Shown one piece after another: positions 1,280 to 3,126 of a stretch of DNA of 3,126 bases. Both the position numbers and the translations under genes were made by a program. How positions within the stretch are numbered: position 1 is the stretch's first letter; each line of letters begins with the position of its first letter. Under the pieces are notes generated by a model, which was given only the letters and a program-made list of their open reading frames with translations, did not search any database and was not told the DNA's origin. Source of the stretch: a phage; the sequence record PZ195124.1. One strand, given 5' to 3'.

Positions 1280-1667
1280 AACTTTACGCAATTTCGTACT
1301 CGTCGATAATGGCGGTACGGGGAATGTTACTGTCGTTCCTGTTAGCAATGCCAACGGCGTCGCTGAGTGGCTTTCTAATAACTCACGCAGTCAAGCTTAT
1401 CGCGTGACTGCAAGTTATCGTGCGTCGGGCGCGGATAAGCGCAAGTACACCATCAAACTCGAGGTACCGAAAATCGTTACCCAAGTTGTAAATGGTGTCG
1501 AGCTGCCTATCTCCGCATGGAAGGCTTATGCCTCCATTGACCTGACCATCCCGATCTTTGCTTCTACCGAAGATGTGACTGTTATTTCCAAGTCACTCGC
1601 CGGTTTGTTCAAAGTTGGGAACCCTGTTGCCGAAGCTATCTCTTCTCAGAGTGGCTTCTACGCTTAA
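1275..1667 (+). CDS. cp: Major capsid (coat) protein, 130 aa including the initiator Met
   Basis: ORF ATG 1275 to TAA 1665-1667. The product MATLRNFVLVDNGGTGNVTVVPVSNANGVAEWLSNNSRSQAYRVTASYRASGADKRKYTIKLEVPKIVTQVVNGVELPISAWKAYASIDLTIPIFAS... aligns along its whole length with the MS2 coat protein (FVLVDNGGTG.VTV, ANGVAEW, SNSRSQAY, RKYTIK.EVPK, GVELP, ELTIPIFA, GNP). From memory it is closer to the GA/BZ13 type. Length and position (second gene, 16 nt after mat) fit. Confidence 0.97.
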   Translation: MATLRNFVLVDNGGTGNVTVVPVSNANGVAEWLSNNSRSQAYRVTASYRASGADKRKYTIKLEVPKIVTQVVNGVELPISAWKAYASIDLTIPIFASTEDVTVISKSLAGLFKVGNPVAEAISSQSGFYA

Positions 1668-1858
1668 TGGGTCTGAAAGCAAAACATAAGGAAAACCTAT
1701 GTTCCGATTCACAGAGATCGAAAAGACTCTATGTATGGATCGCACTCGCGATTGTGCTATCCGATTTCACGTCTATCTTCAGTCATTGGATTTGGGGTCT
1801 TCTGATCCTCATTCTCCAGACTTTGATGGACTTGCCTACCTTCGTGATGAATGTTTAA
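1667..1858 (+). CDS. lys: Lysis protein L, 63 aa, single-pass membrane protein overprinted on the coat-replicase junction
   Basis: ORF ATG 1667-1669 to TAA 1856-1858. Its start overlaps the coat stop (UAAUG, 1665-1669) and 1699-1858 overlaps the replicase start in a different frame. The product has a basic N-terminal part (MGLKAKHKENLCSDSQRSKR) followed by a hydrophobic segment LYVWIALAIVLSDFTSIFSHWIWGLLILILQTLM with a Leu-Ser dipeptide (codons 1757-1762), as in MS2 L (LYVLIFLAIFLSKFT). No Shine-Dalgarno of its own, consistent with termination-coupled initiation. Confidence 0.85.
   Translation: MGLKAKHKENLCSDSQRSKRLYVWIALAIVLSDFTSIFSHWIWGLLILILQTLMDLPTFVMNV
1683..1703 (+). promoter_or_regulatory. 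Replicase translational operator hairpin (coat-protein binding site) containing the replicase SD and start codon
   Basis: AACAUAAGGAAAACCUAUGUU folds as lower stem 1683-1688 with 1698-1703, an unpaired A at 1689, upper stem G1690-C1697 and G1691-C1696, and loop AAAA 1692-1695. The replicase AUG (1699-1701) is in the 3' arm and AAGGA (1688-1692) acts as the SD. This matches the architecture of the MS2 operator ACAUGAGGAUUACCCAUGU (bulged A, 2-bp upper stem, 4-nt loop). Confidence 0.8.
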
Positions 1859-3126
1859 CTAAACATCCCTCACTGGGAGACAGTAATTCGGAAGCACGCC
1901 GTAAGGAATTGGCATATGCCAAACTTATGGATAGTGATCAAAGATGCAAAATCCAAAACAGCAACGGATACGACTACTCTCATATCGAGAGTGGCGTACT
2001 GAACGGTATACTCAAGACCGCTCAGGCCCTAATTGCAAACTTGCTCAAGGGTTTTGAATCTCACTTCCTGAACGATTGTTCGTTCTCCAACGGAGCCTCA
2101 CAAGGGTTCAAGTTGCAGGATGCAGCGCCGTTTAAGAAGATCGCTGGGCAAGCAACCGTTACAGCTCCTGCCTATGACATTGCCGTAGCCGCCGTTAAAA
2201 CGTGCGCGCCGTGGTATGTTTATATGCAGGAAACGTATGGTGATGAAACCAAATGGTTCCATCGGGTATACGGCAACGGTTTGTTTTCTGTTCCGAAGAA
2301 CAATAAAATAGATCGGGCTGCCTGTAAGGAGCCTGATATGAATATGTACCTTCAGAAAGGGGCGGGATCTTTTATAAGAAAACGCCTTCGCTCTGTCGGT
2401 ATAGATCTTAACGATCAAACGCGTAATCAGGAATTAGCCCGACTCGGCAGCATTGATGGTTCTCTCGCTACTATTGATCTCAGTAGCGCGAGTGATTCCA
2501 TCTCTGACCGCCTCGTTTGGGACCTGCTTCCTTCACACGTTTATTCATACCTCGCCCGCATTCGTTCATCATTCACTATGATTGATGGCCGTCTGCACAA
2601 GTGGGGTCTATTTTCTACCATGGGTAATGGCTTTACGTTTGAACTCGAGTCCATGATTTTCTGGGCTCTGAGTAAAAGCGTTATGCTGTCCATGGGTGTT
2701 ACTGGCTCATTAGGCATCTACGGTGACGATATAATCGTCCCTGTGCAGTGTGCCCCAACTCTCCTTAAGGTACTATCCGCTGTGAACTTTCTTCCTAACG
2801 AGAGGAAGACATTTACAACGGGTTACTTTCGTGAAAGTTGCGGTGCACACTACTTCAAAGGTGCCGACATGAAACCTTTTTACTGCAAGCGGCCAATGGA
2901 AACCCTTCCCGATGTCATGTTGCTTTGCAACAGGATAAGAGGTTGGCAGACCGTTGGTGGAATGTCAGATCCGCGGCTCTATCCAATTTGGAAAGAGTTC
3001 GCTGATATGATTCCGCCGAAGTTTAAGGGTGGATGCAACCTGGATCGCGATACTTACCTCGTTTCACCGGATAAACCCGGTGTTACTTTAGTTCGTGTCG
3101 CTAAGGTACGTTCTGGTTTTAACCAT
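1699..3126 (+). CDS. rep: RNA-dependent RNA polymerase (replicase beta subunit), 3'-truncated by the window edge; 476 codons present
   Basis: Hand translation from ATG 1699 to 3126 gives 476 codons with no stop: MFRFTEIEKTLCMDRTRDCAIRFHVYLQSLDLGSSDPHSPDFDGLAYLRDECLTKHPSLG ... GIYGDDIIVP ... FLPNERKTFTTGYFRESCGAHYFKG ... GGMSDPRLY. Shared blocks with the MS2 replicase include LQDAAP.KK, GNG.F.VPKNNKIDRAACKEPDMNMYLQKG, SVGIDLNDQ, GSLATIDLSSASDSISDRLVW, FSTMGNGFTFELESMIFWA, GIYGDDII, NFLPNE.KTFTTGYFRESCGAHY.KG and GGMSDPRLY. It is absent from the ORF track only because it lacks an in-window stop. Confidence 0.97.
   Translation, partial: MFRFTEIEKTLCMDRTRDCAIRFHVYLQSLDLGSSDPHSPDFDGLAYLRDECLTKHPSLGDSNSEARRKELAYAKLMDSDQRCKIQNSNGYDYSHIESGVLNGILKTAQALIANLLKGFESHFLNDCSFSNGASQGFKLQDAAPFKKIAGQATVTAPAYDIAVAAVKTCAPWYVYMQETYGDETKWFHRVYGNGLFSVPKNNKIDRAACKEPDMNMYLQKGAGSFIRKRLRSVGIDLNDQTRNQELARLGSIDGSLATIDLSSASDSISDRLVWDLLPSHVYSYLARIRSSFTMIDGRLHKWGLFSTMGNGFTFELESMIFWALSKSVMLSMGVTGSLGIYGDDIIVPVQCAPTLLKVLSAVNFLPNERKTFTTGYFRESCGAHYFKGADMKPFYCKRPMETLPDVMLLCNRIRGWQTVGGMSDPRLYPIWKEFADMIPPKFKGGCNLDRDTYLVSPDKPGVTLVRVAKVRSGFNH
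2719..2730 (+). other. Replicase catalytic motif C (YGDD)
   Basis: Codons TAC GGT GAC GAT at 2719-2730 are in the replicase frame within GIYGDDIIVP. The upstream motif-A-like IDLSSASDS (Asp codons 2476-2478 and 2494-2496) and motif-B-like STMGNGFTFELE (2614-2649) are also read directly. Confidence 0.9.

Follow-up and report, generated by a model that had tools for sequence, protein, structure and literature searches.

Identification of the Replicase Frame

The last 1.4 kb of the analysed stretch of phage DNA (3126 nt in full, hereafter the window) raises a simple question: is this region nearly devoid of genes, as a list of its open reading frames (ORFs) would suggest, or does it carry the largest gene of the phage? 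Only two listed ORFs of at least 60 aa overlap positions 1699–3126, namely a 63-aa ORF on the plus strand (1667–1858) and a 106-aa ORF on the minus strand (2098–2418). According to the original prediction, these two ORFs look like the only candidates because a 1428-nt replicase frame, which starts at 1699 and runs off the 3' edge, had been omitted from the list, and a stop codon in this frame would speak against it. No such stop codon was found. The frame is uninterrupted for 476 codons (1428 nt), from 1699 to 3126, whereas the two other forward frames contain 20 and 38 stops in the same span. It is preceded by an in-frame stop codon, TAA at 1687, after which the first possible start codon is the ATG at 1699.

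The list indeed lacks this frame, because the window ends before the replicase stop codon, and the tool by its stated design excludes ORFs that run off an end. Clearly, the apparent invisibility of the replicase results from the ORF-listing rule acting at the window edge, and is not a biological feature. ORF lists that require stops at both ends lose genes cut by the edge of a window or a contig, and in an RNA phage genome of 3–4 kb the gene lost in this way can be the largest one and the one of most diagnostic value.

The identity of the encoded protein was assessed by the profile search that the original prediction had proposed as a check. The 476-aa translation matched the Pfam family RNA_replicase_B (PF03431) with 715.2 bits (E 6.1e-215), at a Pfam cut-off of 25 bits for this family. 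Residues 18–470 aligned with positions 14–462 of the 540-position profile, which is the coverage expected of a C-terminally truncated copy of replicase. The translation also matched the Qbeta replicase beta subunit in the Protein Data Bank (3MMP, 4R71, 4Q7J, and 3AGP; E 2e-64, residues 39–443). All three polymerase motifs that had been predicted could be located and aligned to Qbeta replicase. Motif A, DLSSASDS (aa 260–267, positions 2476–2499), aligned to DLSAASDS of the Qbeta chain 3mmp_G, motif B, STMGNGFTFELES (aa 306–318, positions 2614–2652), aligned to SSMGNGYTFELES, and motif C, YGDD (aa 341–344, positions 2719–2730), which holds the catalytic aspartates, aligned to the YGDD of Qbeta. 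The residues looked for as marks of the polymerase palm, D..D in motif A and GDD in motif C, are both present.

The comparison with annotated relatives pointed in the same direction. Position 1699 of the window corresponds to the annotated replicase start of phages GA (1749), DL10 (1696), DL20 (1742), and KU1 (1770), and the 1428 nt align gap-free, codon for codon, with the coding sequences of all four. The nucleotide differences at the first, second, and third codon positions numbered 13, 12, and 71 in the comparison with GA, 14, 9, and 67 with DL10, 11, 8, and 76 with DL20, and 39, 31, and 145 with KU1. Among the differing codons, 65 were synonymous and 21 non-synonymous for GA (95.6% amino acid identity), with the same two counts and the same identity for DL10; the corresponding values were 71 and 16 for DL20 (96.6%), and 126 and 47 for KU1 (90.1%). 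Differences dominated in this way by third positions are what purifying selection on a protein-coding frame leaves behind, and the replicase frame clearly evolves as a coding sequence.

The open frame, the PF03431 and Qbeta matches, and the relatives together indicate, with a probability of about 97%, that the plus-strand frame 1699–3126 codes for residues 1–476, out of an expected 532, of the beta subunit of a replicase, an RNA-directed RNA polymerase, and that the phage is a single-stranded RNA coliphage of the F-specific group II (Emesvirus japonicum, GA/BZ13 type). The gene is already known, and the strain that carries it is only slightly divergent; an annotation artefact has been repaired, and no discovery made. 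The frame brings no new biology, and its value lies in annotation: with the frame recognised, the window becomes a standard fragment of a group II levivirus genome instead of "three small genes" followed by 1.4 kb of empty sequence.

Homology to Qbeta replicase suggests that the protein would have RNA-dependent RNA polymerase activity together with host EF-Tu, EF-Ts, and S1. As judged from what is known of MS2, GA, and Qbeta, the replicase would join host EF-Tu, EF-Ts, and ribosomal protein S1, and would use the plus strand as a template for minus strands and these, in turn, for new plus strands. The holoenzyme mechanism with host factors is established for Qbeta replicase, and the same mechanism is to be expected here.

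Genome Layout and the Missing Ends

The replicase frame is the last of four genes, all on the plus strand and each matching a Pfam family of its own, in the order maturation, coat, lysis, replicase. The maturation gene (86–1258, 390 aa) matched Phage_mat-A and the coat gene (1275–1667, 130 aa) matched Levi_coat. The position of the frame, 3'-proximal and behind the maturation and coat genes, is that of the replicase in a plus-strand genome of about 3.5–4.2 kb. The layout is that of group II, with a 390-aa maturation protein, a 130-codon coat gene, a 63-aa lysis gene that starts at UAAUG, and a replicase start 32 nt later; the ORF sizes and junctions in the window are identical to those of GA, DL10, and DL20. 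In the 5' UTR hairpin region before the maturation start, the window has an extra T at 66 relative to GA, DL10, and KU1, which is also found in DL20.

How much of the gene lies beyond the window can be judged from the relatives. The annotated replicase genes of GA, DL10, DL20, and KU1 are 1599 nt each (532 aa and a stop codon), and all four have exactly 56 further residues beyond the last codon of the window, terminating in ...CVLS and a stop codon followed by a UTR of 118–119 nt. The original prediction had placed about 55 codons and the 3' UTR outside the window, for a gene of MS2 or GA size; the estimate held, with the size being that of GA (532 aa) and not that of MS2. By the relatives, the window ends 171 nt short of the end of the replicase gene, and it would lack about 290 nt at its 3' end in total, comprising the 56 codons, the stop codon, and the UTR of 118–119 nt.

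A search for this continuation with an exact 36-nt pattern from the window in viral contigs gave no match, and neither did a search with an exact 27-nt pattern in metagenome contigs. Exact look-ups were likewise without a match, both for the maturation protein in a gene-position index and for the maturation, coat, and lysis proteins in a collection of 15 billion protein sequences. As no exact-match 3' extension was found, the stop codon of this particular strain is inferred from its relatives, which suggest that the replicase gene is complete in this strain and ends with a stop codon.

It might be argued that the replicase is truly truncated at 3126, either in a defective or deleted genome or in a partial cDNA that reflects a real RNA end, so that no complete replicase would be made. 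The window does end within the gene, and the exact-match searches yielded no extension. However, about 51 nt are missing from the 5' end as well, in comparison with GA, DL20, and KU1, whose genomes begin with GG(G/U)UGG, and the start of the window lies within about two bases of that of the DL10 record. With both ends missing, the truncation is best read as incomplete sequencing or windowing and not as biology. In support of that, purifying selection is normal up to the last codon, the alignment to the relatives is free of gaps, and every one of the four annotated relatives goes on for the further 56 codons. A genuine truncation is, thus, very unlikely, and the frame is better regarded as the greater part of an intact replicase gene.

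The Antisense ORF and the Overlapping Lysis Gene

If the frame 1699–3126 were free of stops by chance, or were what is left of a decayed gene, the real genes of the region would be the 63-aa ORF and the antisense ORF. These are the two ORFs of at least 60 aa listed over the span, and the antisense ORF (2098–2418, minus strand, 106 aa) is open not only in the window but also in GA, DL10, and DL20, that is, in four of the five group II genomes. However, the probability that 476 codons stay open, estimated from the base composition, is about 2e-11, and the frame remained open in none of 20,000 shuffled sequences; the profile and structure-sequence matches are overwhelming; and the substitutions in the frame fall predominantly at third codon positions. 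Moreover, the antisense ORF is interrupted by two stops in KU1 and is under no coding constraint of its own. The open-frame odds, the Pfam and Qbeta matches, the codon-position pattern, and the antisense analysis refute the chance-frame or decayed-remnant reading, which retains only a negligible probability.

The lack of constraint on the antisense ORF follows from the distribution of differences over its own codon positions. These were 9/3/0, 6/4/1, 8/3/0, and 26/9/6 at the first, second, and third positions in the four comparisons. The first codon position of the antisense ORF coincides with the third position of the replicase, so differences concentrated there indicate that the antisense ORF itself is not constrained as a coding sequence. 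On the strength of this substitution pattern and the two stops in KU1, we rejected the antisense ORF as a gene; it is a by-product of the replicase frame, and once that frame is recognised, the ORF is no longer mistaken for a gene. That it encodes a real protein of GA-clade phages, translated from the minus strand, is extremely improbable, as the evidence is strongly against it. If true, it would be the first case of a levivirus gene on the minus strand; for none of these phages is translation of the minus strand known.

The 63-aa ORF fared differently. The original prediction had treated it, like the antisense ORF, as a candidate that stands out only when the replicase frame is left out of the list. 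Both are indeed the sole ORFs of at least 60 aa listed there, but the 63-aa ORF is no decoy: it is a real overlapping lysis gene (1667–1858, plus strand). Its product matched the Pfam family Phage_MS2_lysis with 29.3 bits (cut-off 25) and shares 97–98% of its residues with the lysis proteins annotated in GA, DL10, and DL20. At its start, UAAUG, the gene overlaps the stop codon of the coat gene, and in a different frame it covers the initial 160 nt of replicase (codons 1–53). This overlap changes by 1.3–3.1% per nucleotide, versus about 7% in the remaining replicase gene. Together with the operator region, the lysis/replicase overlap forms, at 1667–1858, the most conserved stretch of the window (96–98% nucleotide identity to the four relatives, KU1 included), as would be expected of a region that is both doubly coding and regulatory.

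In KU1, 18 + 3 extra bases are found between the coat stop codon and the operator hairpin (KU1 positions 1717–1770, compared with 1665–1699 of the window). These extra bases, and the UUG annotated as start codon of the KU1 lysis gene, indicate that only the GA sub-lineage, which includes the window, joins coat and lysis genes by a UAAUG overlap.

Relationship to Group II Phages

Over its whole length, the window is 92.8% identical to Escherichia phage BZ13 strain DL10 (FJ483837) and 92.3% identical to phage GA (X03869/NC_001426), in both cases with 100% of the window aligned, and 84.7% identical to KU1, over 99–100% of the window. All the close records are assigned to Emesvirus japonicum, i.e., to group II F-specific RNA coliphages. 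The notion that the replicase stems from another levivirus lineage, group I of the MS2/fr type or Qubevirus, could draw on the fact that the MS2, fr, and Qbeta replicases match it too, but its likelihood is minimal: it is refuted by the whole-window nucleotide comparison, in which MS2 and fr cover only 5–13% of the window at 73–83% identity, versus 100% at 92–93% for GA and BZ13, as well as being at odds with gene lengths (390, 130, and 63 aa) and a UAAUG coat/lysis junction equal to those of GA, and with a coat reading frame that meets a stop by 1803, too early for the read-through domain of a Qubevirus.

We also considered, and rejected, a recombinant or mosaic genome in which the replicase differs in origin from the remainder. 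In a sliding-window analysis, identity was even and the ranking of relatives by identity was constant along the whole window, and there were no indels relative to GA inside coding regions; neither observation gives any sign of recombination.

A scan of viral contigs with a protein query returned only distant metatranscriptome leviviruses (34–51% identity) and one group II fragment, and so illustrated the breadth of the family without adding more. The latter, a 1.7-kb metatranscriptome contig (IMGVR_UViG_3300019247_000248), carries at 1276–1740 a group II-type replicase N-terminus that is 91% identical over residues 1–155. It was the sole close relative among more than 600 levivirus matches in the viral contig collection.

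In nucleotide sequence, the strain represented by the window is about 7% divergent from the strains that the searched collections contain. Group II has further known strains, among them JP34, TH1, TL2, SD, and BO1 (PMC3499819). These five are absent from the complete-genome collection used in our comparison; since known group II strains thus lie outside that collection, the newness of the strain itself cannot be claimed.

Probable Regulatory Structures at the Replicase Start

The replicase start codon (1699–1701) and a Shine–Dalgarno-like AGGA (1689–1692) are both held in a hairpin at 1683–1703 of the plus strand. Its stem is formed by pairing of 1683–1688 with 1698–1703 and of 1690–1691 with 1696–1697, with a bulged A at 1689 and an AAAA loop at 1692–1695. 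The fold has an energy of −4.9 kcal/mol (z −3.0) and persists when folded in a 486-nt context, and the hairpin shows no variation among the five group II genomes. It is the equivalent of a feature in the GA record (1733..1753) that is labelled "pot. binding site coat protein".

A search of Rfam returned nothing except a match to the MS2 operator model (RF02359) at 1682–1702, which scored 18.1 bits (E 0.45), below the gathering threshold of 40. Because of this score, we did not file the hairpin under RF02359. It differs from the MS2 operator in its AAAA loop and is reached by the model only below threshold, but is the GA-type counterpart of that operator. The hairpin at 1683–1703 is expected to bind a coat-protein dimer, through which replicase translation would be shut off. 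From what is known of MS2, GA, and Qbeta, this would take place later in infection, when a coat-protein dimer on the hairpin would turn the translation of replicase off.

A second predicted structure borders the operator hairpin on its 5' side. When positions 1275–1760 are folded to minimum free energy, the sequence GAAAGC at 1675–1680 forms the 3' half of a long-range helix, the other half of which, GCUUUC at 1370–1375, lies in coat codons 32–34. The same fold also pairs 1365–1369, in the region of coat codons 31–34, with 1743–1747 inside the replicase gene. Neither half of the 1370–1375/1675–1680 helix varies among the five genomes, so there is no covariation by which to test it.

MS2 has a long-range helix in the corresponding position, through which translation of the replicase depends on that of the coat gene. 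That helix extends from about coat codons 31–34 to just upstream of the operator, and the helix predicted in the window is a candidate counterpart of it. If it acts as suggested by the knowledge of MS2, GA, and Qbeta, ribosomes traversing the coat gene would open the helix and, thereby, make replicase translation possible.

Comparison with Known Systems

The closest known counterparts of the replicase described here are those of GA (X03869, CDS 1749..3347, CAA27499.1) and of the BZ13 strains DL10 (FJ483837) and DL20 (FJ483839). They represent the same gene, identically placed in the genome, with the start codon embedded in the same operator and with the same overlap of the lysis gene with the replicase gene. 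Over the 476 codons, they show 95.6–96.6% amino acid identity and 93.3–93.7% nucleotide identity to the window. The differences, about 6.5% at the nucleotide level, are mostly synonymous and change 16–21 amino acids.

KU1 (AF227250) and the BZ13 strain of record FJ483838 form a second sub-lineage of group II. Their replicase is the same gene of the same length and aligns without gaps, at 85.5% nucleotide identity to the window. Unlike in the window, additional bases separate the coat gene of KU1 from its lysis gene, for which UUG is the start codon.

The relationship to MS2 lies in gene order and regulatory layout, including a replicase start codon within a bulged-A hairpin with a 4-nt loop, while the nucleotide identity to the window is only 73–75% over about 400 nt. 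The record of phage fr describes its replicase as "AA 1-545", compared with the 532 aa of a GA-sized protein. The Qbeta replicase beta subunit belongs to the same Pfam family and shares with the window the conserved motifs A (DLS.ASDS), B (MGNG.TFELES), and C (YGDD). However, it comes from another genus (Qubevirus) and is longer (589 aa), and confident alignment with it is limited to the core domains.
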